From: a virus
Lineage: Duplodnaviria; Caudoviricetes
Virus record (IMG/VR): IMGVR_UViG_3300035673_000002
Location: 1-64,000 of that record
Length of the DNA: 64,000 nucleotides
Strand: one strand, 5' to 3'
The notes under the pieces were generated by a model that was not told where the DNA came from, did not search any database, and saw only the letters and a program-made list of their open reading frames with translations. Each line of letters begins with the position of its first letter. The stretch's first letter is position 1. Shown piece after piece: positions 1-24,372 of the stretch. Position numbers and translations under genes: made by a program.

Positions 1-1016
1 GCGGATACGTCGACGATGCTGAACTGTCTGCAGGCAACCCCGATGGCAAAGCCGGCACTCACTCCAATGGAAAAACCGCTTACCGTTATTGTCGCGTGAT
101 CTTCTGCGCGGAAAACTGTGCCGGTGGCCGAGAGCACAAATGGACAGTTCGATGGAGTACCAGCGTCGCCAACGAAGCTGAGTATCGGCATCGAGTTGTA
201 GCCGATGACATCGATGGTCTGATTGAAGGCGGCGTTGCACACCGCCTGTATCGTCGCTCCGATGCGAAAGGTCTGTACGATGCCGACGACGGTGTTGAAC
301 GTGGCGCAAGCCGAGGCCATGTCAAGGCAGTCCGCAACCAGCGCGCTATCGCTGCCGCCGGTCGCGGCCACGTAGATGGTGGGACTTGCGATGGATGTGA
401 TGAGAAGCGGCTGCTGCTGCCAGACTGAACCGATCACCTTGTAGGAGACTTGCATCCCCGGCAGAAGACGCTGAGCCGAGAGACCGCTCGGATTGATGGT
501 CTTGCCGCGCGTGGTGTCGGTGTTGGTGAATGTCAGCAGGCAATTCGCTGTGAAGCCGCTCGTCGCACCAACTGTGACGACGTAGAACGCCGCGCCGCCG
601 AGCGAGTTGACCGCACCGCAGTCAGTCCCGGATGCTGCGAACGCTCCGGTCCTGGCCACCACCGGGCTCGGCACCGGAAGCGCGCTGTTCTGCAGCTGGT
701 AGCTCGTGCCGTCGTAGACGATCGCGTAAATGCGGCCGCTGACGATCTCCCCGCCGCCGAGCGCAACGCCGTTGTTCACGACAGCCGTTGCGGGAAGCCC
801 CGTGATCGCGACCGTGGTGGGGCCGGTGTTGCTGGCCGAGGCCTTGAAGCGCAGAGGCACGCCGGGGGTGAGCGCGCTGTAATTCGGGATATTGATTGTG
901 ATCGCGTTGCCGGTGCCGCCGGGCGAACCATCATAGGTTCGCTGGTCGGGGAATTGCGAGTGTGCCGGCGATGCGGCGGTGCCGATGAGCGCGAGTGCGA
1001 GCAGTAGACGAAGCAT
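1..1016 (-). CDS. Tail-fibre/receptor-binding-like protein with N-terminal signal peptide; 3' end lies outside the window
   Basis: Read manually (absent from the ORF track because it has no stop). ATG at 1016 after a GGAGAGAG RBS; open to position 1; MLRLLLALALIGTAASPAHS/QFPDQRTY...; beta-rich; directly downstream of the baseplate and short-fibre genes. Confidence 0.8.
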   Translation of the reverse strand, partial: MLRLLLALALIGTAASPAHSQFPDQRTYDGSPGGTGNAITINIPNYSALTPGVPLRFKASASNTGPTTVAITGLPATAVVNNGVALGGGEIVSGRIYAIVYDGTSYQLQNSALPVPSPVVARTGAFAASGTDCGAVNSLGGAAFYVVTVGATSGFTANCLLTFTNTDTTRGKTINPSGLSAQRLLPGMQVSYKVIGSVWQQQPLLITSIASPTIYVAATGGSDSALVADCLDMASACATFNTVVGIVQTFRIGATIQAVCNAAFNQTIDVIGYNSMPILSFVGDAGTPSNCPFVLSATGTVFRAEDHATITVSGFSIGVSAGFAIGVACRQFSIVDVS

Positions 1017-1036
1017 GGCTGTTCTCTCTCCGATGA

Positions 1037-1765
1037 TCATGCCGCTGCCACGGACCAGCTTGCGGCGGCAGCATAAAATCTGAACCGGGCAACCATCCAA
1101 TCTTCGTTCATGACGTACGCCGTCCTGCCTCCGATCGTTGTGCCTGCTGATGGCACAACCGTGGCGGTGTTCGGCGCGCGGAGATTCCCCACGAGGTCGG
1201 CGATCTCGTACTCCTGGCCATTGATCGGCGCCGCGGTGAAGGCGAGGTTGATCGTCATCGGAGCGAGGCCCGAGGTGCGGTTGAGGCCTATCGCATAATC
1301 GGTGCCACTGTCGAGGTTGAGCGTCGCGCTCGATGTGACGACTCGGGTCGACTTACCGAAGGCATCGATCCAGCCGGCTCCGCCGGAGTCGGGGTTCGTG
1401 ACATTGTCGTCGACGGTGGACTTCCAGAATCGCCCGACGACTGTCGCCGAGGCCACCACGGCATTCTGCGGGTAGCCGCCGATCGCCGCCGAGAACGCCG
1501 AGTCCCATGGAACGGCGCCGCCCGCTCCCTGCCAGCGCGCCCATTGCGTGATCTGCTTAAACAGGCCATTCGCGTCCTGGCCGAATGGCGGCACGCCGCC
1601 GATGCCTTTGGCGGTGAAGTTGAGGGGCGGGCTCCCGTCGGTGAGCGACCAGGCGCCGTCCTGGATGCCGATCTGCGAGGAAACCGGTATCGGTCGAATG
1701 AAGCTGGGGCCCGCGGAGTTGGCGAACGGGATCGGAAACTTTGTCGGGATGTCCGAGAGCTTCAC
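1037..1765 (-). CDS. Short tail fibre / fibre adaptor
   Basis: Follows the DUF2612-like wedge gene; N-terminal IPFA...GVPPFGQDANG segment typical of baseplate-attached fibre proteins in this phage type. Confidence 0.7.
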   Translation of the reverse strand: MKLSDIPTKFPIPFANSAGPSFIRPIPVSSQIGIQDGAWSLTDGSPPLNFTAKGIGGVPPFGQDANGLFKQITQWARWQGAGGAVPWDSAFSAAIGGYPQNAVVASATVVGRFWKSTVDDNVTNPDSGGAGWIDAFGKSTRVVTSSATLNLDSGTDYAIGLNRTSGLAPMTINLAFTAAPINGQEYEIADLVGNLRAPNTATVVPSAGTTIGGRTAYVMNEDWMVARFRFYAAAASWSVAAA

Positions 1766-1778
1766 GGCCTGGTCCCTC

Positions 1779-2444
1779 TCATGCGTGCGGCGTGGTGGCG
1801 ATGTGAGCGAGCACGCCGCACGGCCTCGGCAGCACGCCCGACTGCTGGATGATGGCGAGCTCCAGCGGGGTCAGGATGAAGTTGAAAAAATAGGTAATCG
1901 TCATGTCGAGGCCGTCGATGACGTAGCAGTTTCCGCGGTTCGGGAAAAGGTTCAGCAGCAGTTGGTTGATGCCGGGGATCGATCCGTCGGAAATGTTGGA
2001 CAGCGCCTTGGCGAAGATCAGCACACGGAAGGCGTTGTCGGGCAGGCTAAAGTTGCTGGTAACGGTCGAGACGAACCATGGCTGCTGGTTCCAGCCCTCG
2101 GCGTCGCCGGCTTCCTCCCAGCCGAAGAACGAGCCGGTCGACGGCACCGAGAGCGTGCGACTCACTCCGACGATGCGTCCCCATATGTCGAGCCCGTATC
2201 CTTCCGCGGTGTCCACGTTCCAGATGAGATCAAAGAACGCGTCGAAGTTGGCGGTCTGGTCGAGGTAGCTATCCATGTCGGTGATCAGTTGCGTCAGCGC
2301 TGGGCTGTTCGCGTACTGGCTGATCACGGTGCTCCAGACGTCGAACGCCTCGATCGTGCCGATCGGCGAGATGCCGATGGCGAACGAGCCGATCGCATTT
2401 GAGCCTGGCGCGGGATCCGGGCGCGGATAGGGTGGGCCGGTCAT
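1779..2444 (-). CDS. Baseplate wedge protein (DUF2612-like)
   Basis: ISQYANSP...[16 protein letters not shown]...D..FRVLI..KA..NI motif; downstream of baseplate J. Confidence 0.85.
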
Positions 2445-3871
2445 ACCAGGGTGACCGCGATATTCGCCGGCGCGATCGTCGGCTCCTGGTCCATGTTGAC
2501 GCTGACGGAATCGAGCGTTGCGGTGGCTGTCTTCATCGCCTCGCTGCCGACCGTCTGCGTATTGCTCACGGTGTAGGTTCCGGCGCCGCCGGCTGGGCCG
2601 GTAAGTTGCGCGAGAATTTTCGTTCCGACCACCACGAGGCCGGTCGTATCGGACAGAGTCTGGCCGACCGCGATCGTTCCGGAGACGGACGATGCCGTCA
2701 GCGTGGTTCCGGCGATCGCTCCGGTGAATGATGCGGCGGCGGTATTGGTCGAACCGACTTTGATCGAGACGATCTGCGCCCAGGAGCCCAGCTTGGCCAC
2801 GGGCGGATAGTAGCGGCTGGCCGCGATGGTGGATGCGATGCGCGCTCGAGCTCCGCCGTCAGCGCCGGCGAAGGCGGCGATAATTGCATTCTGGATTTGC
2901 GTGGTGGCGTCGGAGGGAACGAGCGTGCTGTTGGTGATGGAGATGGCGAACAGGATCGCGAGCGAGGCGGGCCGTTCAAAGGTCACGTTGTAGCTCGGGA
3001 ACGGCGGCGAATATTTTGGGTTCTGGTCGAGCACCGCGACTGTCGTGTTGCCGTTGTAGGAGCAGCCGGGGTTTTTTCTGGACCAGATGGCCTGGGCGAT
3101 ATTGGCGTCGGTGCCTCCCACAGCCGAGACGTAGAGCGAGTTTGCGGCCACGACCACGCCGCGGAATGTGACGGGCGCGTTGTTGCCGTTGTCGAAAGCG
3201 AAGGCATCGACGACGTTCGGGACGTCGAACACCGCGCCCACGATCGAAGGCAGCGAGCCTCGCGAATTGAGGGCAACCGAGGCGGCGCGTCTTGCTTCGA
3301 AGTCGGCTCGGCTTTCGGTGTTGTTGCCGATCTGGCCGTCGGTCGGATTCGTGATGCTGTCCCAGCCATTGATCGACTGGTAAATCTGATTGAGCGTTCC
3401 AGCCGGGCATGCGATCGGCCCGTCGAGCACGCATGCAAATGGGAGCGTCACGGTGCCGCCGACCGGGATCGTGCCATCGATCGTGTTGACGTAGCGGTTG
3501 CCGTCTGTGGCGATCGCGATCGCGCCGGCGGGAATGACGACGCCCGTGAGGCCCGTGCACGCGGCCTGCACCAGCGTCGGCCTCGAGGGCAGGCGGGAGA
3601 GGAAATAAATGCGGGCGATGCCGTCTTGCATGCGGCCATCCGCAAACGCCGGATCGACGCCGTTGGCGAGCTTGGCGAAGTTGTCGTTCGCGTTGCCGAT
3701 GATCGCCGTGGTGCTGGTCGCCAGCTGACCCTGCGGCGTCTCGAGGCTCGGGTTGAGGTTGCCGCCGAAGGCTACGAGCTGGTCGGCCTGTACGCCGGCG
3801 AGGACCGCCGATTCCGCCGGGGCGACGAAGCCGTTCAGACCGAATGTGGGTGCGGGGACGTTTGTGGTCAT
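2441..3871 (-). CDS. Baseplate J/gp47-like protein with inserted C-terminal beta module
   Basis: [25 protein letters not shown] motifs; position in the baseplate cluster. Confidence 0.9.
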
Positions 3872-4221
3872 CAGAATGCCGCCGCTGCTGTTCGCCCGCT
3901 CTTGTCCGTCACCTGCACCTGGCCGGCCACCTTACGCTCGGATATCGCCGAGATGAAGCATTTCGCAGAGACCACCTCGGGAACCGTCAGTGCCGCGTCA
4001 TTGAAGCGGGACTTGAGCAACGCGAGCGGCGGGGTGGCACCGAGGATCGTTCCGAAGTAAACGACGCCCTTCGTGGTGTCGTAGTAGAGCTCGCTCCGAA
4101 AAAGCTTTATGGCGCTGGCCGCGTCCTGCCCGAGCGCATAAGGGTTGGAGGCGACCGCGATGTTGCCGTTGATGTCGAGCACCAGGTCCCAGGCGCTCAC
4201 GTCGAGCAGCAGCGTTCTCAT
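3871..4221 (-). CDS. Baseplate wedge subunit (gp25/W-like)
   Basis: WDLVLD..GNIA...[14 protein letters not shown] motif; lies between spike and J. Confidence 0.8.
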
Positions 4222-4234
4222 GCGGCCTCCGTTT

Positions 4235-4897
4235 TCATGTTCCAGGCGTCGGCGATGAGGGCGGCCCGGTGGCCGCGGTAGGATGGTTGTGCGTCTGCAG
4301 ATTGACCTGGTCGCCGGTTCCGAAGCCGGCCACCACAGCGCCGTTGACCCGGAAGGCGAGCGTCGTGACGTCGATCGAGCCAGCCTTCATCTCGATCGCA
4401 TTACCGCTGCGGTCCGAGAGCTTGATCCCCGTCGCGGTCATCGAAACGTACTGCGTCGGCGCTCCGCCGAATAGGCCGCCCATGTAGACGCCGTCGGCGA
4501 GGTCGAACCGCCGGCGGGAGCCCGGGTTCGAGCGCTTGCCGGCGGTGGACTTGACGGCGGAAATGTCGCGATCGGCGACCGCCATCCAGCCGACGTCGTT
4601 TACGGCCGGGTCGCAGACGACCGAGCCGTTGGCGCCCTGGAGCCGAAACACCGGCACGTTGTTGATCGGGCCATGCTCGGTGGCGTTGCCTTTGCCGTCT
4701 ATCTGGTTGACCAGCACCTGGACCGAGACGATGGGAGGCGCCGCGATGCCGCCTCCGGTGATGGAGAGCACGCGCACGATCTGCATCGTGCGGACGCGGC
4801 TGAGTATCTGCGCGACCTGGAATTCGTGCACGGACCAGTCCGAAGCGGCGTCGCTCGGATCGAATTGGCCATAACCGAATGATCCGGCGTCGGTCAT
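4235..4897 (-). CDS. Baseplate central spike (gpV/Gp138-like)
   Basis: OB-fold-like N-terminus (VPVFRLQG, D.G....ADRDIS); C-terminal THNH metal-binding tip motif. Confidence 0.85.
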   Translation of the reverse strand: MTDAGSFGYGQFDPSDAASDWSVHEFQVAQILSRVRTMQIVRVLSITGGGIAAPPIVSVQVLVNQIDGKGNATEHGPINNVPVFRLQGANGSVVCDPAVNDVGWMAVADRDISAVKSTAGKRSNPGSRRRFDLADGVYMGGLFGGAPTQYVSMTATGIKLSDRSGNAIEMKAGSIDVTTLAFRVNGAVVAGFGTGDQVNLQTHNHPTAATGPPSSPTPGT

Positions 4898-5769
4898 TGT
4901 GCGAGCACCGGCTGTGGCGATTTCGGGTTGTAGGCGCCGATGGTCGAGAACCAGGCGCCGTTCGGCATCATGCTCTCGAGCTCGTGGTCGATGGCATAGA
5001 TCGCCCAGGTGCCCTTTGCCGGTGCAAGCGAACTATCGACCTGGATCTGCCCACCGAAGTTGATCGACTTGTTGAACAGCGTTCGGAGCATGATCCCGAC
5101 GGCCGTATACGTGGGATACCCGATCATGCCGGTCGCCGGCGAGACGAGCGGGATGGCGCCACCTCGTGATCCGTTGCGTGGCCAGATGGCGAGTTTGCCG
5201 TTGTCAATCGCCCACATGAAGCCGCCGGCCTCGGCGCAGGCCCTGGCCTGGTCGACCAGCGAACCCGGGAGGTACGGGTTTGAAAGCTGGCCGCTCACGC
5301 CGCTGTTCTCAAAGGTCAGTTGCATCTTGGCCGCGAGCCCGCTCATGATCGTGACCACGTCGGCCGCTCCATTGAAGCTCGCCGGCGGCGTTGGGATCAC
5401 GGCCTCTGCAGCGCCGGCCTGGGCCGAGACATCAAAGGCCACCTCCGGCATGCCCTGAAAATCGATCCACGCCATCGTCACGGTGCCGACGAAGATGATG
5501 CCCATGCCCGTGTCTGCGTCGCCGGCGCTGATCGTCACGGTATTGCGCGCCAGAAGGTTGATCTGGACGCCGAGCGTCGAGAGCTTGTTCATCAGGCTCA
5601 GCGTCATGCCGTAGATGCGCAGGTGCGCCTGCATCGCGGTCGTGCCAGCCTTGGCGATTTGGGCCGTCGTTCGCAGGCCGCTGACCGTGACGACGTCCGA
5701 GCCCGATTCGGTGAAGTTGCCGGTTGCGAGCTTGAACGAAATGTCAATGAGCCGCTCGACGAGCGCCAT
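4894..5769 (-). CDS. Baseplate hub protein
   Basis: Position; L.IYGMT, TGMIGYPT, LFN..I.FGG motifs. Confidence 0.8.
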   Translation of the reverse strand: MALVERLIDISFKLATGNFTESGSDVVTVSGLRTTAQIAKAGTTAMQAHLRIYGMTLSLMNKLSTLGVQINLLARNTVTISAGDADTGMGIIFVGTVTMAWIDFQGMPEVAFDVSAQAGAAEAVIPTPPASFNGAADVVTIMSGLAAKMQLTFENSGVSGQLSNPYLPGSLVDQARACAEAGGFMWAIDNGKLAIWPRNGSRGGAIPLVSPATGMIGYPTYTAVGIMLRTLFNKSINFGGQIQVDSSLAPAKGTWAIYAIDHELESMMPNGAWFSTIGAYNPKSPQPVLAQ

Positions 5770-5772
5770 CGC

Positions 5773-6090
5773 TCATGCTCCCTCGATAAGGAGGAGGTCC
5801 GCCACCTCGAGGTACGCGAGCGAAAACCTGACGCCGAGGCCGGTGAACACGGGATCCTCCCTGCCTTCGTTGTCGAGAAAGCAGAGGTCGCCGATGAAAC
5901 CGAAATACGCGTCGCGCACGATGCGGTTGCGGTCCTGGCAGATCACGCCGCCGATGAGGAGAGCGCCGCTCTTATAGAGGTCGAGGTACATGCCGGTCGA
6001 TTTCTGCCGCACGGTGATGCGGCAGCTCTGCTGGACGAGGATCACCTCGACGGTCTGCGCCGGGACGGCCGTGAGCGGAATGATGAGCAT
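5773..6090 (-). CDS. Small baseplate protein (plug-like)
   Basis: 105 aa, IPL.AVPAQT...F.GDL.F.D..G..DP...GLG.RF.L.Y; conserved position before the hub. Confidence 0.75.
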   Translation of the reverse strand: MLIIPLTAVPAQTVEVILVQQSCRITVRQKSTGMYLDLYKSGALLIGGVICQDRNRIVRDAYFGFIGDLCFLDNEGREDPVFTGLGVRFSLAYLEVADLLLIEGA

Positions 6091-6695
6091 CAGTTGATCT
6101 CACCCGCCGCGGGGGCGGCCGCCTGTGGCGCGGTCGGAGGCTGGGGCTGCACGTTGCCTCCCTCGATCGCGTTCGCTCCGCTCGCTGCCTTCGTGCTCGT
6201 GAATGCCGGCGCGGTGGCGACGCGCATCTGCAGGCAGAATATATCGACCACGAGCAGGCCTGTGCCGCGCTCGGCGGTGCGGTGATAGTCGACGTGCGTG
6301 ATGTTGATGTTCGGAAAAACCGCCTCCGGTGTCACGCCGTCGAAGAGGTCGAGCGAGCCATCGATCGCCTGGATGGACGCGAGCAGCGCCTGGCGCCCGA
6401 ACAAGGATCCTCCGGCCGAAAACCGAAAGCGCAGATTGAAGGGGGCGCGGACCTTGTTGTAGCTCTCGAAAGCGCCGGCCTCGAGCGGGTAGTCCGCGAC
6501 GGCGAAGTCCTGCCGGTAGTCGAACGCCACGACGTTGTCCGCGACCACTACCGGGAAGTCGTCTTGGAAGATGCCCCACCGCGGCGCGAAAAAGCTGCCG
6601 AAGAACGAGATGGCATCCTGTAGCAACAGCGCCGGCACTGTCTTGGAGAAGCTCGCGAGCGGCGGGACGCCTGGCACTTGCGGGACATTTGGCAT
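6090..6695 (-). CDS. Tail tube initiator / Dit-like baseplate protein
   Basis: YPLEAGAF.SYNKV..P motif; immediately after the tape measure gene. Confidence 0.75.
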   Translation of the reverse strand: MPNVPQVPGVPPLASFSKTVPALLLQDAISFFGSFFAPRWGIFQDDFPVVVADNVVAFDYRQDFAVADYPLEAGAFESYNKVRAPFNLRFRFSAGGSLFGRQALLASIQAIDGSLDLFDGVTPEAVFPNINITHVDYHRTAERGTGLLVVDIFCLQMRVATAPAFTSTKAASGANAIEGGNVQPQPPTAPQAAAPAAGEIN

Positions 6696-8251
6696 CAGGC
6701 CGGTCCTGAATTGGAAAGCAGTGCGAAGCGCGTTCGCTCGATCGCGGGCTTGATGTCGCGCGCGATCCGCTCGGCATCGGCGGCCTGCGTCTGCACCGTG
6801 AGTTGCGCGATGTTCACCTCGCTGCGCGCTGACGATTGGCGGTTGTCCACATTGCCGGCGGCGGCCGCAGCTGGTGCTCCCGCCTGGCTGGGCAGGCCTG
6901 CCGGCGATCCTCCGGCGCCTCCGCCGCCACTTTCCTGGAAGCGCCTGGCGGCCTCTGGACTGTTGAACTGGACGTGAAGATGGCCGCCGGTCGAGCCGCG
7001 CGATGGGGTCTTGTATTCATCGATCACGGTCGCGTCGACGCCCATCGCGCGCAGTTTGACGCGCAGGTCCCTGGCGATCGCCTCGGATTGCCTGGGATCA
7101 TTGAGCGTGAAATCCAGCGCGCGGCCCTGCGGGTGGGCGCCGGCGCCGAGAAACGCGTGGTAGACGTCATTGAACGCGGTGAACTGCTTAATGCCTGGCA
7201 CCTGGGTCTGGATGTCCTCGGCGAGCTTCTGGATGCTCGGCGATGCCGTGCCGGCGCCGGGCTTCACGCTACTCTCGCCCAGCGACTTGAGCAGCGGTCC
7301 GACGACGGGGACGTCTTCGGGGGCGCCGAAGCGTCGACGCAGGCTCTCGGTCGATCCCTCGCCGCCCTTGAACTTGCCGAGGATGCGGCCGAGCCAGCTG
7401 TCCGGGTTGACGAACACGCCGCGGCTAAATTGCGTAAAGGCCTTTGTCCAGGTGTCGAGCAGCCCCACGAGCGCGGGCGTGAGAATGTTCGTGATGACGT
7501 TGCCGAGGTTGGTGCCGGCCTGGATCATGGCATTCCAGGCCTTGAGCAGCGGCTCGGCTTCGTCGGCCTGCTTTTGGGAAACGACGCCGAGGCGCTCGGC
7601 CTCGGCGATGAAGCTGCGCGTCTTGTCGATGCCCTGGACCATCAGGTTGATCGTGCCGGGGTCCAGCCCGAGCAGGCGCCCGAACCAGTTGGCGCGCACG
7701 ATCCCGCTTTTCTCCGCGACCTTGGAGAGGTTCTCGGCGATCGTCAGGAACTGCGTTGTGATCGGCTTGGTCTTGTCGATCGCCTTGCCGCCTTCGCTGG
7801 CCAGCCGATCGAGCATGGCGACGAAGTTTACGTCTCCGAGGCCGGCCTGGTAGGCCTGCAGCGCATCCGAATAGGTCTGGATCGATTGCGCCACGCCATC
7901 AGCCGTGCCGCCGGCGAGCTCCACCGCCTTCTGCCACTTCGACACCTCTGGCACCGCCACGCCGAAGTTGCGGGAGAGGCGCGCGAGGGCTGCGTTGTTC
8001 TCGGTGATGTAGCCGGCGAATTGCGAGATCCCGCGACCGCCGAGCATGATGCCGATGAGGCCGAGGGCTCGCCGCTGGAGCACGCTAAAAAACTCCGCGG
8101 CTACCTCGCCGGCGCTCTGGATTTTTTTCGCGGCGTCGAGCGCCTCCTGCTGGGTCTTGCGGAACGCAACGACAGCATCCTTCTGGCCCTGAGTGAACTT
8201 CTTAGGGTCCAGTCCGAGTTCAACGACGAAGGCATCGATTACGGTTGCCAT
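6695..8251 (-). CDS. Tape measure protein with C-terminal M15-type zinc peptidase domain
   Basis: MATVIDA.VVELGLD start and helical body; HPQGRALD (H-x6-D) plus HLH zinc-ligand motifs. Confidence 0.85.
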   Translation of the reverse strand: MATVIDAFVVELGLDPKKFTQGQKDAVVAFRKTQQEALDAAKKIQSAGEVAAEFFSVLQRRALGLIGIMLGGRGISQFAGYITENNAALARLSRNFGVAVPEVSKWQKAVELAGGTADGVAQSIQTYSDALQAYQAGLGDVNFVAMLDRLASEGGKAIDKTKPITTQFLTIAENLSKVAEKSGIVRANWFGRLLGLDPGTINLMVQGIDKTRSFIAEAERLGVVSQKQADEAEPLLKAWNAMIQAGTNLGNVITNILTPALVGLLDTWTKAFTQFSRGVFVNPDSWLGRILGKFKGGEGSTESLRRRFGAPEDVPVVGPLLKSLGESSVKPGAGTASPSIQKLAEDIQTQVPGIKQFTAFNDVYHAFLGAGAHPQGRALDFTLNDPRQSEAIARDLRVKLRAMGVDATVIDEYKTPSRGSTGGHLHVQFNSPEAARRFQESGGGGAGGSPAGLPSQAGAPAAAAAGNVDNRQSSARSEVNIAQLTVQTQAADAERIARDIKPAIERTRFALLSNSGPA

Positions 8252-8496
8252 CAGCCCTCGCTCGTGTGGCGCTTCGCCAGGATGTGGCGGTTGTGCGCGT
8301 CGATCATCGATATCTCGAGGAGGTCGTATGCGTCCTCGATCGAGAGCGCGGTATCGAGCAGGTGCAGCGTCCCTGCCTTGTCCGCGCTCAGCGCGATCAC
8401 GGCGCCGATTACGCGGGGGGTGTTTCGGTACTCAAGGAGCCCGCCGACGTCGACTCCGAGTTCAACCTCGAGAGGGCGTCGGCGATTGAAAAACCC
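8251..8496 (-). CDS. Tail assembly chaperone -1 frameshift extension (gpGT-like)
   Basis: Open -1 frame after the slippery site, with no start codon of its own; ends ...SIEDAYDLLEISMIDAHN..., coupled to the tape measure start. Confidence 0.75.
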   Translation of the reverse strand, partial: GFFNRRRPLEVELGVDVGGLLEYRNTPRVIGAVIALSADKAGTLHLLDTALSIEDAYDLLEISMIDAHNRHILAKRHTSEG

Positions 8497-8876: not shown

Positions 8877-9271
8877 CAGGCCACCGCCGGCTGGACCGAT
8901 TCCCACGTGATGCTGAAGGTCTGCGGCTGCAGGAGCTTCTTGGCATCTGGCAGCGGCTTATAGCCGTTTAGGAAGCCCCTGGTCATCGTGAACTTCTTGC
9001 CGATCGCCGTGAGCAGGATGACGCCGTTGGCGGGGAAAAGATCGCGCACGGCCTGCTGGGCATTGAACCAGACATCGAAAATATTCGGGATCGATGGCGA
9101 GTCCGCCTGGAGTTTGTAGTTCTGCTTGACGGCGACGGCCACCCAGCCGGCCGAGAGCTTGCCGTCGACGCCCATCAAGAATTCGGCCGACTCGATCGGG
9201 TCGGTGTCGTAGACGTCGTCGGCCGCGAAGCCCTGGAGTTGGAGCGGCTTCGCACCGGTGATGCTCGGCAT
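8876..9271 (-). CDS. Tail tube protein
   Basis: LQGFAADD...MGVDG.LSAG...LQADSPS...FSITWE motif; follows the sheath gene. Confidence 0.85.
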   Translation of the reverse strand: MPSITGAKPLQLQGFAADDVYDTDPIESAEFLMGVDGKLSAGWVAVAVKQNYKLQADSPSIPNIFDVWFNAQQAVRDLFPANGVILLTAIGKKFTMTRGFLNGYKPLPDAKKLLQPQTFSITWESVQPAVA

Positions 9272-14919: not shown

Positions 14920-14926
14920 GCTGGCG

Positions 14927-15505: not shown

Positions 15506-16083
15506 GCTCCGTTCTGCAGGGTGACGGCGACCTTACACCAGTCCGGCCAATATTCGAGCACCAGAACGACCAGCCAGATTTCGCCGTTCGGCCTGGTGAT
15601 GAGATCGCCGCCTTTGTTGTCCTTGCGCACCAGGCCGTCGATCCGGCCGTTGAGATAAATCGCGCGCTTGATGCCCTGGAGGTTGAGCGAGTCGACCTGG
15701 TGGAGATCGCTGAAGGTCATCGATTGAACTTGGCCCGGAACGGTGAGCGCCGATGTCATGGCCTCGCTGCCGACCGTCTGTCCGGTTGGGCTCACCAGAT
15801 ACGTTCCCGCTCCGCCGGTGCCGGTGCCGAGCGCGACGATCACGGTCCCGGGGGCGACGCCGGGACCTGTGATCGTCTGCCCCACTTTCAGGACGCCGGA
15901 AGCCACGGCGCTGACGGTGAGCACGTTGCCGGCGATCGCTCCGGTGAAGCTCCCGGGCGTGGCGTATTTCGGCGAGCGGGTTCCGCTCCCGGCGGTGGTG
16001 TAGCCGACGCTGATCTGCACGCCGAGTTGCTCGTCCGGGTTTACGGCCGTGATGGCGCCGCGGACGATCTGGTGAAGGTTCAT
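15502..16083 (-). CDS. Head-closure / neck protein with inserted beta module
   Basis: MNLH.IVRGAI..VNP, Q.I.RAIYL.G...G.VR...KGGDL, WPDWCKV motifs. Confidence 0.8.
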
Positions 16084-16098
16084 CGCGCTCGATCGGGG

Positions 16099-16857
16099 TC
16101 AGTAGAGGCTGGCGACGGGTCCCACCGCGGTGGTGAAGGTGCCGGCCGGGGCGAAGGAGACGAAGGTTCCGAAGGTACCGGCGGCCTGGCTTTGGGCGCC
16201 GAAGTCGCCGATCGTGTGCGAGCGGAACTTGTAGCCGACGTTGTTGCACTGCAGTTGGACGTAGTAGGTCGCCGGGCCCTTGGCGGCGTAGGGGGTGGCG
16301 AACGGCACGCGCTGGTAGACCGCGGTACCGGAGGCGGCGGTGGACGCCGAAAGGGCCGCGGCGATCGGCGCTCCGGCGCTGGTGGCGAGGCCGACCTGAA
16401 TGTTGCCAGCCACGGCGGTCGCGTTGACGAGCGCGACGCCGGTCACGGTCATGTTCGCCGGGATGAAGAGCTCGGCGACGTAGGTCGTGGTCGCGACGCA
16501 GGTGACTTCGGTGCCGTCGGTGATGGCGAGCGGCTTCCAGTTGCCGGTCATCACCAGGCGCGGCGAGATCGTGAAGCCCGCGGCTGGCCCGATGCCGCCG
16601 GTGGGAGTGTACGCTCCGGTGGACGAGAACGTGCCGGTGGCCGTCAGATTCGTGAAGGTGCCGGCGACCGGCGTGGTGCCGCCGATCGTCATGTTGTCGA
16701 TGAGGCCTGGCGCGGCCGGGCTCGTAGTCGGCGGCGTGAACGGAAACACCTGGTCGCCGATGTTCGTAAAGAACGTCGTGTTGGCAGCCAGGGCGATCGC
16801 GTACACGCTGATGAGGGCAGCGCCGGTGATGAGTGCCTTGCGAAGCATCGGGATCAT
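16099..16857 (-). CDS. Signal-peptide-bearing fibre-like protein
   Basis: RKALITGAALISVYAIALA/A leader; IDNMTIGGTTPVAGTFT fibre-shaft motif; C-terminal beta-sandwich with two Cys. Confidence 0.75.
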   Translation of the reverse strand: MIPMLRKALITGAALISVYAIALAANTTFFTNIGDQVFPFTPPTTSPAAPGLIDNMTIGGTTPVAGTFTNLTATGTFSSTGAYTPTGGIGPAAGFTISPRLVMTGNWKPLAITDGTEVTCVATTTYVAELFIPANMTVTGVALVNATAVAGNIQVGLATSAGAPIAAALSASTAASGTAVYQRVPFATPYAAKGPATYYVQLQCNNVGYKFRSHTIGDFGAQSQAAGTFGTFVSFAPAGTFTTAVGPVASLY

Positions 16858-17393
16858 CCTTTCACGTCGTAGTCGACGCTGTTGAGCATGTGGGCAGTCT
16901 CGTCGAGCACCTTGGTGGAAACGCCGGCGGTCGACTCGCCGGCGGCGACGCGTCGTGCCGCCTCGCCCACGGTCTTGCGTGTTACCACGAGCGCCTGGTT
17001 CTGCGATTTCATTTTGCGCAGCATGATCGTGACCGGGCTCAGAGGCGGGGTGTCAGTCTCGATGATTGCTTGCTGCAGCTGGCCGCGGATGCCCTCGCCC
17101 AAGCGGCGCAGCGCCTGGTCGGCGTCGTTGTCGACGGCCTTGAGGTTGGCCTCGAGCGCAGCAGCCCAGCCCGGGCTTTTCGCCGCGACCATGCTCGAGA
17201 AAAACGGCCGCGGCGGGATCCTGACTTTCGGTGCGCCGTAGTTCTGGATCGCCGCCACCATGGCGACCGGCGTGCCGTTGGGATAGGTCGCGTTCTCGAG
17301 GAAGCCCACGCGGAGCGTTTCCTTGCGGGCGAGCTTGTGCGCCAGGACCGCCAGAGCGGCTTCGAATTTGTCGCCGCCTCTGATCGTGGCCAT
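16854..17393 (-). CDS. Neck / virion morphogenesis protein
   Basis: ATG at 17393 after AGGAGAGG; VGFLE.ATYP.GTPVAMVAAIQ.YG...IPPRPFF...L.SV.Y.V motif. Confidence 0.85.
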   Translation of the reverse strand: MATIRGGDKFEAALAVLAHKLARKETLRVGFLENATYPNGTPVAMVAAIQNYGAPKVRIPPRPFFSSMVAAKSPGWAAALEANLKAVDNDADQALRRLGEGIRGQLQQAIIETDTPPLSPVTIMLRKMKSQNQALVVTRKTVGEAARRVAAGESTAGVSTKVLDETAHMLNSVDYDVKG

Positions 17394-17469
17394 CAGGCCT
17401 CTCCTGGTCGCACGGGCCGCGGCCTCGGGCTTAGGTGGGGGTTTGGTGCCGAGGCCGTCTTGCGCGTGT

Positions 17470-18186
17470 TCAGCGGGGCTCGTTACCCGGCACGACCGGG
17501 TCCGGGTTGTTGGGGTCGGGCTGCCGCGGCTGCGGATCGCCGGGATCGCGCGGGTTGCTCGCGGCCTGGTCGCCGCTCTGGTCGACGCGCTGGGGCGGGA
17601 TCGCGCCTGGTGCGCCGGCGTGCTGCGGGGCGTTTGTGGCGAGCGTCGGCGCGCGGCCGGCCTCATGGGGATTGACGAGGCCCGCCTCATTGGGCCCGGT
17701 CTGGGGGCCGACCTGGAGGCGTGGCGTGCCCCGTGGGCGGCCTAACGGTGGCCGTTCGGTAATCGGGACCATTCCGGATGCCGACGGGTCCAGCGGCCTT
17801 CCGCCGGCGCGCTGGAGGCCATAGGAGGTGGCCAGATCGTCGAGGTCCTGGCCGGAAGCGTTCGAGATCGGGTTCTTGACGTCGTAGGCGGCGTCATCGC
17901 CGCCGACCGCCTGGAGCGTGCGGGCGCGCAGGCTGTCGTCGCTCTCGAGGTCCTGGCCGCCCTCGTACTGGGCACGATCATCGTCCTTGCGCGGGGTCTC
18001 GGGCGGCGGCAGCGGCTTGTGGATTTCGTCATGCAGCCTTTTCGCGTCGGCGTCTTCCTCGGCCTTCTCGCGCGCGCTGTGCGCCTCCCATTGCGGGAGC
18101 ATGCCCTGGACGAGCATCGGCTCGACCTTGGCCTTGAAGGCCATCAACTCGGCGATCTGTTTTTCCATCTTGTCGACGTCGGCCAT
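17470..18186 (-). CDS. Hypothetical Pro-rich protein carrying baseplate-J-like motifs
   Basis: GGAGAG RBS; in operon; ESDDSLRAR and ASGQDLDDLATSYGLQR. Confidence 0.7.
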   Translation of the reverse strand: MADVDKMEKQIAELMAFKAKVEPMLVQGMLPQWEAHSAREKAEEDADAKRLHDEIHKPLPPPETPRKDDDRAQYEGGQDLESDDSLRARTLQAVGGDDAAYDVKNPISNASGQDLDDLATSYGLQRAGGRPLDPSASGMVPITERPPLGRPRGTPRLQVGPQTGPNEAGLVNPHEAGRAPTLATNAPQHAGAPGAIPPQRVDQSGDQAASNPRDPGDPQPRQPDPNNPDPVVPGNEPR

Positions 18187-18213
18187 GGCCGTTCTCTCCT
18201 TGCTTGTGTGGGT

Positions 18214-18717
18214 TTACCCCGTGTAGCCGTTCCAGTTGCTGCCGCCCCAGCCTGCCGCCCAGGCGCTCCGGAACGGGTAGATGCTGTCGACGACGATGGT
18301 CGGCCTGGCGATGTAGCGCATCGTGCGGTACTGCGCCGTCATCGCCCAGAAGGCCGCCCCGTATTTGCTTTGCTGCCACCATTGCGCGGAGCCCGCCGGA
18401 TAGTCGTTCTCGGCGCTGACCGAGACCGATCCTTCGCTCGCGCTCGAGACGCGCCCGACCAGGCCTGGGGCCTGGACGGCGCCGCCGGTGACGATGTTGC
18501 CGTTGGCGTCGCGTGTGGAGCAGAGCCAGGCAATGTGGGCGGTGACCGTGTTGAGGAGCACGGCGAGAATGGCCGACGAGCTCACCGGGCCGCCGCCATC
18601 GTTGCGGACGTACGTGGTCGCTTCATCGAAATAGAGTTGAGCGACCTGCTGCGTCACGCCCGCGAATTCAGGGTAGCGCGCGATCCAGGTGGCGTAATTG
18701 AACGTGACGATCGCCAC
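18214..18717 (-). CDS. Head-tail adaptor (DUF4054-like)
   Basis: W..RYPEF...F.EA...AH.A.L...GRVSSASEGSVSVS...W.Q.KYG..FW motif. Confidence 0.9.
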   Translation of the reverse strand: MAIVTFNYATWIARYPEFAGVTQQVAQLYFDEATTYVRNDGGGPVSSSAILAVLLNTVTAHIAWLCSTRDANGNIVTGGAVQAPGLVGRVSSASEGSVSVSAENDYPAGSAQWWQQSKYGAAFWAMTAQYRTMRYIARPTIVVDSIYPFRSAWAAGWGGSNWNGYTG

Positions 18718-18722
18718 GGCGG

Positions 18723-19196
18723 TTAGTCTTCCTTCTCGTTGGTCTGCAGCACGAGGCCTTTGGCCTTGGGCACGCGTGGGTCGCGCGCACGCTTGATGCC
18801 GTCGCGGTCGACCATGGCCATGTCCATGGGCTCGAGGCCGCTCCTGGTGGACTTGTGCTCGCGCGATTCCGCGGTGGCGTCAGCCGGCTTGTCCTGCACC
18901 AGGATGAGCTTGTTCATCACGACGTCGGAGCGCTTGTTCTGCTGCAGCCACGTCTCCATGAAGTCCGCGCTGACGTTGTGGGTCAGGGCGTAGCCGTAGA
19001 CGATGGTCGCCCTCGGCGCCTTGTTGATCTCGTGCGCCGGTCCATTGATGTGCACGGACTCGCCGATCGGACGGGCCACCTTGACATCCTTGTACGAGCC
19101 ATCGCGCTGGAGCTCGCGGGTGTCTTCGTAGGCGAAAACTCGCAACTCGAGCCCGTTGGGGATCTTGCATGCGACGGTGCACGTGTCGGTGGACAT
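18723..19196 (-). CDS. Conserved head-associated protein
   Basis: TVACKIPNGL...V.ADF.E.WL.QN...SGLEP motif typical of the post-capsid gene in this module type. Confidence 0.75.
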   Translation of the reverse strand: MSTDTCTVACKIPNGLELRVFAYEDTRELQRDGSYKDVKVARPIGESVHINGPAHEINKAPRATIVYGYALTHNVSADFMETWLQQNKRSDVVMNKLILVQDKPADATAESREHKSTRSGLEPMDMAMVDRDGIKRARDPRVPKAKGLVLQTNEKED

Positions 19197-19471
19197 CAGT
19201 CGGCTCCTGCGTTGGCCTCGGCGTTCTCGGGCGTGGCGGTGATCCAGCGCTCGGTGGCGAGGATGTTGTGTTCCTTGTTCTGCTCGAGCCATGCGGAATA
19301 AAACTCCGCATCGATCCCTTGGTTCAGCCCGGGCGCGATCTGGACGCCGTCGCCGATCGGGCGCGCGACCTTGCTGCCAGGGATGTCGCCGTCGACCATC
19401 TGAAAGCGGCGCAGGATGACAGCGTTCCCGAGCCTCGAGGTGACCGAGACGGTCTTGCGCTGCTCGCCCAT
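19196..19471 (-). CDS. Short paralogue of the downstream head-associated protein
   Basis: Shares KVARPIG..V.I and A.F...WL.QNK with 18723-19196. Confidence 0.7.
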   Translation of the reverse strand: MGEQRKTVSVTSRLGNAVILRRFQMVDGDIPGSKVARPIGDGVQIAPGLNQGIDAEFYSAWLEQNKEHNILATERWITATPENAEANAGAD

Positions 19472-19553
19472 CGCGTTGCCCCTTGTGTGGCCTGCCCGGG
19501 TCCAGGCGGGAGGATTTTGCCTGTATCCTCCGCGCTGGCTCGACGTCCTTGTA

Positions 19554-20726: not shown

Positions 20727-21671
20727 TTACCCGTTGGGCTGGCTGACCATCTTGACGAGCTCGCCCGGGAGGCCAGTGGACATCGCGAACCACTTCGTCT
20801 CGACATTGCTCGCCGCGGTGATGGTCGTGGATCCCACGACGGTGTTGTTGTTGACGATGTACGTGCCGGTGCCGCCCGTGCCGGTGCCGAATGCCGTGAG
20901 CGTGGTGCCGACGACGACGTTCGTCCCGGAGAGCGAGTCATTGATGGCGAGCACTCCGGAGCCAACGGCCGAGACGGTCATGGTGCCGTAGGTTTCCGAG
21001 ATCGTGGTCGAGGCGACCGTCTGCTCCGGGATGTTGACGCGATACGTGCCAATGCCGCCGGCGGTGCCGGTCAGCTGGTTCACGATCATCGTTCCGGTGG
21101 CGACGTTGGTGCCGGAGAGCGTGCCGCCTGGCACGGCCACGCCGGAGCCGACTGCGGTGATGGTGAGCACGTCGCCGGAGATCGAGCCGGTGAACGATCC
21201 GGTCGAGGCGGCGATCGCGGCGGTCACGGAGGCGCCGGTCGCCGGCGAGCCGGTGGGACCGAACGAGATCTTGCCGGTGGCGAGGTCCGCGTAGGCCTTC
21301 TGGCCGAGCAGCGCCTCGGTGGTGCCGTTGTTCTTTACCCAGAACCCGCCGCCCTTCATGAGGGTGATCGGGAAACCGGCGGGCACGAGCATGCCGGCGT
21401 TGGACATGTAGACGGTGTTGAGGCCCTGCATCTCGCCGTGCACGAAGCCGGTCGGCGCTCCTGCGCCGAAATTGTTCGCGACCGTGGGCGTGCCGTTCAC
21501 ATCAAGCGGAGGCGCCCACCAGGCGAAGCGGCCGATCGTGATGCCGCTGGCGCCGCAGACGAGGCCGCCGGGTCCAGCGTTAACGGACGCGCGCGGGTTC
21601 GAATCGCAAAAGTCGCCCTCTCGAGCGGGCGCCTGTACTGCGCTGACTGCTGTCTGAAATCCGCCGGCCAT
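20727..21671 (-). CDS. Capsid decoration/cement protein with two inserted beta modules
   Basis: FQT.V....A....GDF...NPR.SV.AGPGGL..G..G...GRFAW; lies between protease and capsid genes. Confidence 0.8.
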   Translation of the reverse strand: MAGGFQTAVSAVQAPAREGDFCDSNPRASVNAGPGGLVCGASGITIGRFAWWAPPLDVNGTPTVANNFGAGAPTGFVHGEMQGLNTVYMSNAGMLVPAGFPITLMKGGGFWVKNNGTTEALLGQKAYADLATGKISFGPTGSPATGASVTAAIAASTGSFTGSISGDVLTITAVGSGVAVPGGTLSGTNVATGTMIVNQLTGTAGGIGTYRVNIPEQTVASTTISETYGTMTVSAVGSGVLAINDSLSGTNVVVGTTLTAFGTGTGGTGTYIVNNNTVVGSTTITAASNVETKWFAMSTGLPGELVKMVSQPNG

Positions 21672-21789: not shown

Positions 21790-23679
21790 TCAGCCAAGGA
21801 CTTTGATCTTGCCGATCCCGGGGAACATCTCATTGAGCGATGCGGTGGCGGCCGCATCCATGCCGAGCGGCGTCCTGCCGCCGGCCGGGACGTGCTTGCG
21901 CTCGCCGGGCTTGGGCACCATGCCGAGAATGGCCTTGAGCGCGGGCACTTCCTTGATGCCCTCGTGGTCGATCTTGAGGCCGTCGAGCGCGGTGCGATAG
22001 ACCTGCTCGGCGCTGTCGCACGCGATCTCGAGCTCGCCCACCCACGGCGCCACGAAGCGCTCGGCCTCGCGGATGTCGCGGGAGTTCTTGATGGCGGCGT
22101 CCTGCGCAATCCGGGTGGCCTTCTTGATCGCGGCGTCCATGGCCTCTTTGGTCACGGTGGGCTTGTCCTCATCCTCGCCCTTGTTTCCCTCGTCCTTCTT
22201 ATCGTCTTCATCGTCGTCCTTGTCGTCCTCGTCGGCCGCGCCAACCTTGCTGGCCTTGCTGAACATGTCGCAGGCCTTGGTGTAATCGTCCTCGGAGAGC
22301 TTGCCTTTGAGGAAGCCGGGAAGGTCGGCGTCATCGACTGGGCGAACCGGGAGGGGCTCGACGATCCCGTTCTCCGGAAGAACGTCTTCCTCGTGCGCCT
22401 CGACCATGTCGAGCAGTTGCGCGAGCCCGTCGATCGAGGCGTCCTGGGCGAGCTTGCCCTTGGTGGCCGCGTTGACGGCCGCGATGATCGCTGGGCGCTG
22501 CGCTTTGAAGTTCTTGACCGTAACGCCGGCGAGGCTGGCAAGGATCGGCTTGGTGTCGAGCTTGGCGTCCTGCGCCATCTTGGGCTTGAGGAACGGAATC
22601 AGCGCGCCGTACGCGAGCAGAGCCTTCACGGTGGTCACGGTCTTTTTGCTCATGTCCAACTCCTTTGGTTGTTCGTCGCCGACCACCACATCGGAGCCGG
22701 CCCTGCCTTGTTTCACGAGCGCAACGTGATTGCCGATCATGTCGCGCATCACGCCGTCGTAGCTCTCGCCCTCGTACTCTCCTGGGGTCATGTCGGCGCG
22801 GTAGCGGTACGCGCTCGAGAGTTCCTTCTTTTCCTCGCTCTCGATGTCGTCGATCGCGTCGCGACGCCAGACCACGAGACCGTTGTCGAGGTACGGCGCG
22901 TTGAACGCCGCGGTCGAGCCGGTGGAGCCGATTACGAGTTCTGCGGGGTGGTCATCGGCGCTGACCGGGACGTGTTTCGATAGCAGCGGCTTGTTGTTGA
23001 AGGTCGATGCGGCCTTCGCCAACTCCGCCGGATCCCGGAAAAGCTTGTAGACCTTCTCCGCCTCGAGGCCCAATTCTTTATAATTTGGGATCTCGCGCCC
23101 GAGGTACGGGCAGATGTTGGCCTTCGAAATGTGCGTGTTCGAAACATGGAGGTGGCCGTCGACGCTCTCGGTCCGCACGCTCGCGTAGTCGAGCGCCAGG
23201 CCAGCGCGGGCTGCAGCCAATTTGGCGTCCAGTTGGATGCCATCCGGCGCCCGATCGAACGCCAGGCCGTGGTCCGCGGCGATCGGCTCGAGCGCCTTGA
23301 GAAACTCGACCGCGCTCGCGGTCCCGGGGTGGAGCGGCTGCGGCGGGTCCGACAGCTTGGCCCAGGCGTGGCCGGTGTTTTCGTCGTTGAGCGTCGGCAG
23401 GAATGGCGCATCGAGCGGAAAGCGGTACGTGCGGTACATGCCGCCGGCGCCGCCCTCGCCGATCGGCGTGCCGGCGATCTCCTGGAGGTCCGCTCCGGCG
23501 GTGTCGTGGCCGGTTTCCTCGAGCGCCTCGCGGCGCGCAGCTGCATCGTGCGTTTCGTCGCCCTCGGTGCCGCCGCCGGGGAAGCACCACTCGCCCTGAT
23601 GATCGCCGCCGGCGCCGCGCTTGACGAAGAGCGCGAGGCCGCCTGGTGCGAGGAACGCGATGCCGCCAGCGCCGGTCAT
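21790..23679 (-). CDS. NUDIX hydrolase fused to DUF2213 putative prohead protease/scaffold
   Basis: Nudix box GGTEGDETHDAAARREALEETG; DUF2213 motifs KANICPYLG.EIP, ELSSAY.Y, NHVALV..GRAG.DV.V.D; acidic scaffold-like C-terminus. Start taken at ATG 23679. Confidence 0.88.
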   Translation of the reverse strand: MTGAGGIAFLAPGGLALFVKRGAGGDHQGEWCFPGGGTEGDETHDAAARREALEETGHDTAGADLQEIAGTPIGEGGAGGMYRTYRFPLDAPFLPTLNDENTGHAWAKLSDPPQPLHPGTASAVEFLKALEPIAADHGLAFDRAPDGIQLDAKLAAARAGLALDYASVRTESVDGHLHVSNTHISKANICPYLGREIPNYKELGLEAEKVYKLFRDPAELAKAASTFNNKPLLSKHVPVSADDHPAELVIGSTGSTAAFNAPYLDNGLVVWRRDAIDDIESEEKKELSSAYRYRADMTPGEYEGESYDGVMRDMIGNHVALVKQGRAGSDVVVGDEQPKELDMSKKTVTTVKALLAYGALIPFLKPKMAQDAKLDTKPILASLAGVTVKNFKAQRPAIIAAVNAATKGKLAQDASIDGLAQLLDMVEAHEEDVLPENGIVEPLPVRPVDDADLPGFLKGKLSEDDYTKACDMFSKASKVGAADEDDKDDDEDDKKDEGNKGEDEDKPTVTKEAMDAAIKKATRIAQDAAIKNSRDIREAERFVAPWVGELEIACDSAEQVYRTALDGLKIDHEGIKEVPALKAILGMVPKPGERKHVPAGGRTPLGMDAAATASLNEMFPGIGKIKVLG

Positions 23680-23686
23680 TTGCCGC

Positions 23687-24025
23687 TCAGTCCTCGGCCG
23701 CGCCAATGACAAGCTCGAGGTCGCCCTTCGTGGCCGCCGGTGGGACGCGCTTGAGTTCCGCGGCGAGGCTCGTCTGCTCCTGTACCGTGAGTGGCGCCAG
23801 CTCGGCCGCGCGCGCCGGCGCCGGCATCAGGAGCGCATAGGCGAGCGCTACAACGAGCAGCGCATGGAGCCCGAGTCGGCCGATGCCGCCGGCCAGTTGG
23901 GCGGCGAGGAAGAACGCCAGCGCGAGCCACCCGAAATGCCAACGGCCGTAGATCGGGCCGGGTACGAAGGATGCGATGCAGGCGAAGACGAACGCGAAAA
24001 CGAGCAGCACGAGGCTGATGTTCAC
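23687..24025 (-). CDS. Small membrane protein (three hydrophobic segments, the last signal-peptide-like)
   Basis: GTG after an AAGGAG RBS; NISLVLLVFAFVFACIASF / WLALAFFLAAQL / LLVVALAYALLMPAPARA/A. Confidence 0.65.
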   Translation of the reverse strand: MNISLVLLVFAFVFACIASFVPGPIYGRWHFGWLALAFFLAAQLAGGIGRLGLHALLVVALAYALLMPAPARAAELAPLTVQEQTSLAAELKRVPPAATKGDLELVIGAAED

Positions 24026-24030
24026 GGTGT

Positions 24031-24372
24031 TCACTCCTTCGGTTTCGGTGCCGGCAGCGGTACCGACTCCGCGGGCTTGGCAGCCTCGTCTGCGTCGGTC
24101 TTGGCCTTTGCTGCGGCCGCTGCCGCTGCGATCGCCCGGCCTTCTGCGCCGTCGAGCCAATCGATGACCTTGCGGGAGAACATGTGCGGTTGCTGCTCGA
24201 GATATTGGCGCAGCGCCATATAGTCGGCTTCGCTCACCGTGAACGGTACGTAGGCCTGGGGCGCCGTCGGCGGTGGGGGCCCTGCCGGCGGCGCCTGGGC
24301 GGCCGCGGTCGAGATGGAGATCGCGGCAACGATCGCGGTGGCAAGCGCCGGTCCCTTAAGCGAAAATGTCAT
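24031..24372 (-). CDS. Small signal-peptide-bearing helical protein
   Basis: KGPALATAIVAAISISTAAA/QAPP leader. Confidence 0.7.
   Translation of the reverse strand: MTFSLKGPALATAIVAAISISTAAAQAPPAGPPPPTAPQAYVPFTVSEADYMALRQYLEQQPHMFSRKVIDWLDGAEGRAIAAAAAAAKAKTDADEAAKPAESVPLPAPKPKE

Follow-up and report, generated by a model that had tools for sequence, protein, structure and literature searches.

In the textbook account, the assembly of tailed phages is wholly cytoplasmic. Branched receptor-binding complexes are formed by T4 gp10 with gp11 and gp12, and by CBA120 TSP2 and TSP4 carrying TSP1 and TSP3. In these complexes, an adaptor fixed to the baseplate has a conserved docking domain, and its partner, encoded beside the adaptor, has a conserved N-terminal end and a variable receptor-binding C-terminal end. 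Here, we analyze a stretch of 64,000 bases (the window), which is the first part of the 72,830-base virus record IMGVR_UViG_3300035673_000002. It belongs to a contractile-tailed phage of 72.8 kb with DNA of 65% guanine plus cytosine (G+C), and its late genes encode a set of proteins with predicted Sec leaders, five of which (A, B, C, D and E) are encoded in the window. The gene of protein A is preceded by that of a short leaderless protein, the stub, and the two resemble the gp10-like adaptor and partner in layout and gene position. However, A has a predicted Sec leader and many cysteines, the match of the stub to gp10 is weak (expectation value E of 0.009–0.1) and the pairing is a predicted one.

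Fibres with signal peptides are found in Bdellovibrio bacteriovorus, whose MAT fibres are phage-fibre-like trimers with a signal peptide, a conserved beta-rich N-domain and variable tips, some of which contain Peptidase_S74 (Caulton et al. 2024, PMC10769870). The proteins described here are likened to them by layout, with the same order of leader, N-domain and tip, and a fibre in a relative of this phage (L019) also has Peptidase_S74. In contrast, the MAT genes are chromosomal genes of a predatory bacterium and serve display on its own surface, whereas here the genes belong to the late set of a phage, and A has a candidate baseplate adaptor as its partner. A second comparison concerns gp25 of cyanophage A4, a trimer on the threefold axes of the capsid with an N-terminal anchor and a sugar-binding module (PMC12002296). 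Protein D shares its predicted fold (9jwb chain Z), including the N-terminal extension, but D has a leader and a cysteine pair, is encoded between neck genes and shows only 15% identity.

The small proteins T5 Llp, phi80 Cor, P1 Sim, lambda Lom and Bor, and PBSX XepA are exported by Sec. Like the present set, they are phage-encoded, and they go through the Sec pathway of the host to act in the envelope; however, they are small, often lipoproteins or outer-membrane proteins, not fibre-like and mostly expressed early or from their own promoters. In Porphyromonas gingivalis phages, signal-peptide genes obey the Bacteroidetes Q-rule and include genes of unassigned function as well as capsid and spanin genes (Matrishin et al. 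2023, PMC10367356). Cleavage exposes Gln in those phages, as it would in seven of the nine predicted mature ends of the phage analyzed here; but that description, of Bacteroidota phages, includes neither tail fibres nor adaptors, and the phage analyzed here probably has a proteobacterial host. For the tail, the contractile tails of Burkholderia phage PE067 and Pseudomonas phage E217 have the same order of sheath, tube, terminator, baseplate J and wedge genes (Pfam E217 families), but PE067 has a single leaderless tail fibre of 678 amino acids (aa) and no B-, C- or D-like genes between neck and sheath. What is new here is the A-type protein, with a leader, an invariant QF.DQ.TW motif and a variable C-terminal end, paired with a leaderless stub. 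Our literature searches returned no description of Sec-exported fibres in tailed phages, and neither the phiCbK genomics paper nor the HFTV1 ribosome-profiling preprint has anything on exported phage fibres.

Predicted leaders of the late proteins

A sequence-only reading of the window had described five N-terminal ends in which a basic and then a hydrophobic stretch lead up to an A-x-A/S site. All five are present in the sequence on the minus strand (Table 1); the strings quoted in that reading for B, C and D open at later Met codons, at 14907, 15493 and 16848, respectively. We scored the genes with a home-made leader rule. It requires K/R, next an uncharged run of no fewer than 11 residues that contains a hydrophobic core, and after this run small amino acids at positions −3 and −1. 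This rule flags 8 of the 36 late genes as well as A, whereas in the related phage PE067, likewise G+C-rich, it picks out 0 of 25 structural genes. Shuffling residues 1–40 of each protein leaves on average 1.24 flagged genes per 36, with a maximum of 5. The count of five was thus an undercount, as the genome has nine leader proteins, four of them beyond the window.

Judged by eye and by this rule, the nine proteins fit the features of signal peptidase I substrates, namely a positively charged n-region, an uncharged hydrophobic h-region of 10–15 residues and small residues at −3 and −1. The residue at +1 is Q, A or E in all nine, and the four mature ends that had been predicted to begin with Gln (A, B, C and E) do so. 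None of the nine, which range from 95 to 913 aa, has Cys at +1, so none is a predicted lipoprotein. A receptor-blocking lipoprotein of the T5 Llp or Cor type was considered and rejected on these grounds, the missing lipobox Cys and the sizes. An RR motif is found in none of the five proteins of the window; the 190-aa leader protein encoded beyond it has LRRI, which is not the Tat consensus.

The leaders recur in relatives of A, B, C and D. In these four families, the predicted leader is kept as a feature while its sequence drifts, so what is conserved is not a specific sequence. Among A-type proteins, the conserved part starts at the predicted cleavage site. On this comparative evidence, export of the leader proteins through Sec is very probable.

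The cysteines follow the same division. The families of C and D each have a conserved C-terminal domain combined with one of two kinds of N-terminal end, either leader-like, or leaderless and fibre-like. Within the conserved domain of the D family, a Cys pair (117/201 or 102/216) is present in 28 of 37 leader-bearing members and in none of 49 leaderless members. In the C family, the pair 110/164, also inside the conserved domain, is present in 38 of 45 leader-bearing members compared with 1 of 33 leaderless members. In this phage, the leader proteins contain 1.37 Cys per 100 aa, whereas the leaderless virion proteins contain 0.58. The earlier counts hold as well, with exactly two Cys in each of C and D and with Cys clusters in A and B, whose mature parts have 10 and 5 Cys, respectively. 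A pairing of leaders with cysteines is what export to an oxidising compartment predicts.

Protein A and the leaderless stub

The gene of A leaves the edge of the window, and its end was located at the other end of the record. The termini of the record share 12 nucleotides (nt), GCGGATACGTCG, at window positions 1–12 and genome positions 72819–72830, and the reading frame of A continues across this join. The far end of the record codes for the 121 C-terminal residues of A, which match residues 341–466 of the homologue P0203 (E of 1e-17). Therefore, the record listed as linear represents a circular or permuted genome, in which A is intact with 456 aa.

Protein A is composed of a leader, an invariant mature end of the form QF.DQ.TY/W, a conserved N-module of ∼90 aa, a Cys-rich middle part with four invariant Cys, and a C-terminal end that looks like a beta-helix. 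The family is large, with 3986 matches. Each of the 12 full-length relatives in the alignment with A begins with a leader, whose sequence is free, and contains the four invariant Cys; in 13 of 13 aligned sequences, the Ala of the predicted cleavage site is followed at +1 by QF.DQ. This motif also stands directly after the leader in 25 cluster representatives. The N-module is kept among A-type proteins, while the length (225–719 aa) and the C-terminal end vary. Except for the leader, this pattern of variation is that of receptor-binding proteins, or of an adaptor with exchangeable binders.

A short leaderless stub precedes the A-type gene in all seven loci examined (this phage, L018, L019, L020, L021, L022 and L023). 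These loci are from phages of 44–65% G+C with different architectures, and in the five for which gene coordinates were called the start of the A-type gene overlaps the stop of the stub by 4 nt. In L018 and L019, which are E217-type relatives, the A-type gene occupies the position of A, after Baseplate_J, the wedge and a short leaderless protein; the same stub/A pair is found in the other four contigs, which are quite different. The stubs have divergent N-terminal ends and a common C-domain of ∼100 aa, and their alignment is too divergent to be used for finding further loci. In this phage, the first 132 aa of the stub are 47% identical to the N-terminal end of the 678-aa PE067 tail fibre, the end that attaches to the baseplate. 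A itself does not match the PE067 fibre. With a profile built from the C-domain of the stubs, weak matches are obtained to residues 72–142 of T4 gp10 and to tailspike N-terminal domains. Other fibres dock on domains of the T4 gp10 type and on the N-terminal domains of tailspikes. Among the late genes examined, no further long fibre lacking a leader was seen. From these sequence relationships, we tentatively regard A as an exported distal fibre that would dock on the stub around the time of lysis.

No similarity to PHROGs or Pfam families, also at loose thresholds, was found for A, B, C, E or any of the four leader proteins beyond the window. The PDB sequences gave nothing usable for A, B or the 638-aa leader protein, and neither A nor D has a match among the proteins of isolated phages. 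A search for A-type copies in one genome each of 185,579 species gave 12 candidates, none of which was confirmed, and the A-type pattern was found at two loci in metagenome contigs.

The genes that follow the A-type gene in relatives were also inspected. In L019, it is followed by a 1009-aa Peptidase_S74 fibre with a leader (11756–14785 of that contig) and then by three leader proteins, and in L018 by a leader-bearing homologue of the 638-aa protein. Additionally, L021 encodes a 468-aa protein (9370–10776) with a leader and the same mature N-terminal end. The late regions of unrelated phage types contain runs of two to four consecutive leader genes (L011 8818–12951, L007 8478–12936 and L015 6599–8140), on contigs that are podovirus-like with a 4036-aa polyvalent protein, P22-like and HK97-like.

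The other leader proteins and the late operon

Table 1. Leader proteins and adjoining features of the late operon. Positions are those of the window unless marked as genome; genes on the minus strand start at the higher coordinate.
Feature	Position	Strand	Length	Description
Protein A	1–1016 (first 338 residues); remainder at genome 72464–72818	(−)	456 aa	20-aa predicted leader
Stub	1037–1765	(−)	242 aa	leaderless; candidate adaptor for A
Protein B	12178–14919	(−)	913 aa	23-aa predicted leader
Protein C	14927–15505	(−)	192 aa	25-aa predicted leader; single jelly-roll core; Cys pair 110/164 (numbered from Met at 15493)
phrog_1912 neck or 'head' protein	15502–16083	(−)		leaderless; between D and C; inserted module of ∼65 aa
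Protein D	16099–16857	(−)	252 aa	24-aa predicted leader; C-terminal jelly roll of sugar-binding type
Protein E	24031–24372	(−)	113 aa	25-aa leader-like N-terminal end; Pro-rich start; 0 Cys
Leader protein	genome 72160–72447		95 aa	beyond window; 8 Cys
Leader protein	genome 70222–72138	(−)	638 aa	beyond window
Leader protein	genome 69629–70225		198 aa	beyond window
Leader protein	genome 67951–68523		190 aa	beyond window; leader and hydrophobic segment

The model of D (predicted local distance difference test score of 87) shows a long unstructured N-terminal part and a jelly roll. The extended N-terminal part covers ∼60 aa and includes IGGTTPVAGTFT; the Cys pair of D is 117/201 when counting begins with the Met at 16848. 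Among the fold matches, the auxiliary cement protein A4 gp25 (9jwb_Z) ranks first, with a Z score of 15.3 over 163 residues and a root-mean-square deviation of 5.6, in which model residues 66–249 align with chain residues 8–200. The next matches are proteins of the Bxb1 tail tip (Z of 13.4) and the phi812 baseplate (Z of 12.3). The model thus indicates a fold of the A4 gp25 type with an extended N-terminal part. An assignment of D to DUF4082 (PF13313) was rejected, as the score of 24.2 bits is below the Pfam gathering cut-off of 28.4; some homologues of D carry this domain in precomputed matches.

The model of C, with a confidence score of 90.7 on the same scale, shows one jelly roll. Its fold matches are generic, with Z scores up to 7.2, so no family was assigned. 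Among isolated phages, C matches only Seuss gp47 and one spring phage.

Protein B has two relatives among 5.8 billion proteins. The complete one, P0002, is an 827-aa protein on the contig of a P22-like phage with its own leader, which ends in A-x-A followed by Q. The two proteins are homologous from end to end, except for an insert of ∼185 aa and a C-terminal extension in B. B contains repeated modules and a C-terminal domain in common with the P22-like relative. B and the 638-aa leader protein, which are otherwise unrelated, end in a near-identical tail of ∼23 aa (12178–12249 in the window and 70222–70293 in the genome) with the motif L-x-[KR]-R-D-L-[ED]-P-A-A-N-D-N-T-P-x-F-x-D (ANDNTP). A search of viral contigs with the back-translated pattern gave no other copy, and the tail could be a docking or chaperone tag. 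In Rhizobium phage Paso, the T7-type tail fibre has no leader, and the N-terminal end of the 638-aa protein corresponds to a distal segment in the interior of this fibre. The gene of E lies between a MuF-like gene and a protease/scaffold gene, and in the protein atlas E falls only into unnamed viral clusters.

All of the late genes are on the minus strand. In the order of transcription, they begin with the large terminase, a 1160-aa portal, a MuF-like head protein and E, followed by a NUDIX-protease/scaffold fusion, a minor head protein, the major capsid protein, adaptor and neck proteins, and D. Next are the phrog_1912 protein, C, B, a terminator-like protein, a DUF3383 sheath, the tube, the tape measure and the baseplate, and within the window the operon ends with the stub, a 'tail fiber' in annotation, and A. 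After A (genome 66635–72447, corresponding to L008 4635–10447), the leader proteins of 95, 638 and 198 aa are followed by a leaderless GH25 endolysin, the 190-aa leader protein and two single-pass membrane proteins. No lipoprotein spanin is seen in this part of the genome.

The late operon is tightly packed. C and D have 4-nt overlaps between their starts and the stop codon before them, and the stop of B is likewise overlapped by the following gene. Promoter-like sites are absent from 1–19500, and terminator-like sites are no more frequent than by chance and occur within genes. Because of these overlaps, the missing promoter-like sites and the chance-level terminators, the leader genes are co-transcribed late genes and not independent cassettes, which agrees with the structural operon of the sequence-only reading. 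The slot occupied by D, C and B is plastic, since in PE067 the interval from capsid to sheath is short and contains small neck genes only, and the same slot in the relative L009 holds a leader-bearing D homologue, a homing-endonuclease-like gene and two small leader proteins.

Other genes of the operon show unusual architectures. The ∼65-aa module of the phrog_1912 protein is repeated at the DNA level with 67–76% identity (15757–15965, 21014–21210, 11789–11981 and 2533–2592); its hosts are the neck protein, the minor head protein, the terminator-like protein and a baseplate J-like protein, and it matches parts of phrog_38233 and phrog_21413. The sheath (9302–11440) has 712 aa, and its relatives align as two pieces that cover only 63–67%; relative to the sheaths of PE067-type phages, which have ∼490 aa, it therefore contains a large insert. 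At 21790–23712, a NUDIX hydrolase domain is joined to the N-terminal end of a DUF2213 head-maturation protease/scaffold. The open reading frame (ORF) of the portal (28181–31663) is covered by the portal family only at residues 327–782, leaving long extensions at both ends. The longest ORFs of the Neck1-like gene (16854–17690) and the MuF-like gene (24380–25720) open with Arg/Pro-rich stretches outside the family matches; their true starts are probably further downstream, and there may be another gene in 17470–18186. A megablast search of 1–24400 against isolated phages gave no match, and a search of viral contigs with the sheath gave no close relatives.

Proposed two-compartment assembly and competing explanations

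We propose that the virion may be built in two compartments. The head, neck, tail and baseplate, together with the stub, would be built in the cytoplasm from leaderless proteins, while the outermost add-on parts would enter the host Sec pathway, lose their leaders to signal peptidase I, fold and form disulfides in the periplasm. Contact with the finished particles would come only with the opening of the inner membrane by the holin, or after lysis. A would be a distal subunit of a tail fibre or tailspike, whose newly exposed invariant N-terminal end and N-module dock on the C-domain of the baseplate-fixed stub. D, with the fold of a cement protein and a long N-terminal anchor, may decorate the head or neck similarly late, and perhaps C as well. 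In other phages, fibres and cement proteins can be added to particles that are already complete, so late joining is physically possible. The sequences, the gene order and their conservation were observed directly; the docking of A on the stub and its joining of the particle have, in our estimate, a somewhat less than even chance. More tentative still is the fuller scheme in which A, probably D and C and perhaps B pass through Sec, form disulfides and, with the Gln end as a docking plug, snap onto leaderless adaptors after the holin breach. In this scheme, attachment would be licensed by cleavage, and the same exported pool might have a second task, the coating or cutting of receptors of the dying cell.

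The sequence-only reading had suggested that fibre-like virion proteins may be exported and added to particles during or after lysis. The export part has gained in strength, as the leaders are conserved, their carriers are late proteins of fibre, cement or lectin type, and the cysteines track the leaders. For the addition to particles, there is a new argument for A, the conserved leaderless stub, from which we infer that A may join; B, C, D and E might be added as well. Several points weigh against the two-compartment proposal. We know of no tailed phage that exports virion parts, so the prior is low, and the export call comes from a home-made rule and comparison. A kinship-aware test with domain-only trees leaves two to three independent leader/Cys contrasts in D and about one in C; all of them are in the same direction, yet they are not significant. 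The C homologue in Caulobacter phage Seuss is leaderless and follows the lysis genes. The B homologue in the P22-like phage is encoded upstream of the terminase among leader proteins, outside the structural module, and in the 638-aa protein the predicted leader stands where a virion-attachment domain would be. The weakness of the match between stub and gp10 also counts here, and the adjacency of stub and A would also fit a receptor-binding protein with an exported receptor blocker.

A competing explanation is that the proteins are exported but never enter the particle, which we consider nearly as likely as docking; the alternative named in the sequence-only reading, display on the host surface, belongs here. 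Their site of action would be the periplasm, the infected cell's surface or the lysate, where they may bind, mask or cut the phage's own glycan receptor or surface polymers, and so spare the progeny from debris, exclude rivals or ease release. The small C-domain of the stub would then be the real receptor binder, and A a co-inherited exported partner. Receptor blocking and the exclusion of other phages by exported phage proteins have precedents in T5 Llp, phi80 Cor and P1 Sim, and in T5 the gene of the blocker adjoins that of the receptor binder. The clustering of leader proteins near lysis genes, here and in other phages, speaks for such a role, as do the location of the B relative and the replacement of the attachment part in the 638-aa protein. 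The fold matches of C include the exported PBSX protein XepA, at a non-specific Z of 6.7, and the MAT fibres use a leader, a conserved N-domain and a variable tip for cell-surface display (PMC10769870). However, the phage would spend ∼8.6 kb, or 12% of its genome, on late non-virion proteins, and it would be left with only the 242-aa stub as its tail fibre. The C-domain of the stub is kept across phages of 44–65% G+C, unlike a receptor-binding tip. A keeps its N-terminal end and varies its C-terminal end, as do attached receptor binders. Moreover, none of the nine proteins is a lipoprotein by its +1 residue, and their genes have no promoter or terminator of their own.

Two other explanations fit less well. 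The N-terminal ends might be membrane anchors, helices for trimerisation or docking, or an artefact of Ala/Leu-rich coding and mis-chosen starts rather than cleaved signals. A home-made rule applied to G+C-rich DNA, which favours Ala, Leu, Gly and Pro codons, invites this doubt, as do the 1.24 false calls per 36 genes with shuffled ends and protein E, which has no Cys and whose leader call comes from this phage. Nevertheless, nine genes are flagged where ∼1.2 are expected and none in G+C-rich PE067, and leader-bearing relatives are found on contigs that are not G+C-rich, L022 (44%) and probably L007. The hydrophobic part varies freely and conservation is sharp from the predicted cleavage site, whereas a structural helix would be conserved. 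With the starts of C and D fixed by their 4-nt overlaps and with Cys pairs that track the leaders, this explanation is improbable. The least probable is that the genes are lysogenic-conversion cargo ('morons'), placed in plastic spots of the late operon, that would alter the surface of the lysogen. The slot of D, C and B, with its homing-endonuclease-like gene in L009, would suit such cargo, and lambda lom and bor are exported morons near tail-fibre and lysis genes. However, the leader genes lack flanking promoter- or terminator-like sites, their starts overlap neighbouring stops, an integrase was not found among the large early genes tested, and the positions of A and D are kept in related phages. 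The failure to confirm any A-type copy in the 185,579 species genomes also argues against conversion cargo.

If host-recognition parts of such phages routinely mature in the periplasm, as the two-compartment proposal holds, this would add a new step to tailed-phage assembly and would explain the cysteine-rich fibres of soil phages. Infectivity would be tied to the Sec, signal-peptidase and Dsb systems of the host, and the way in which receptor-binding proteins of uncultured phages are expressed for study or engineering would change. Even if the proteins do not join the particle, ∼12% of the genome codes for late, predicted exported lectins or enzymes of fibre-like type, a set that is undescribed for tailed phages in the literature searched. 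The stub and A provide a concrete testable pair, in which a small adaptor domain is set against a conserved N-terminal end that cleavage would expose.

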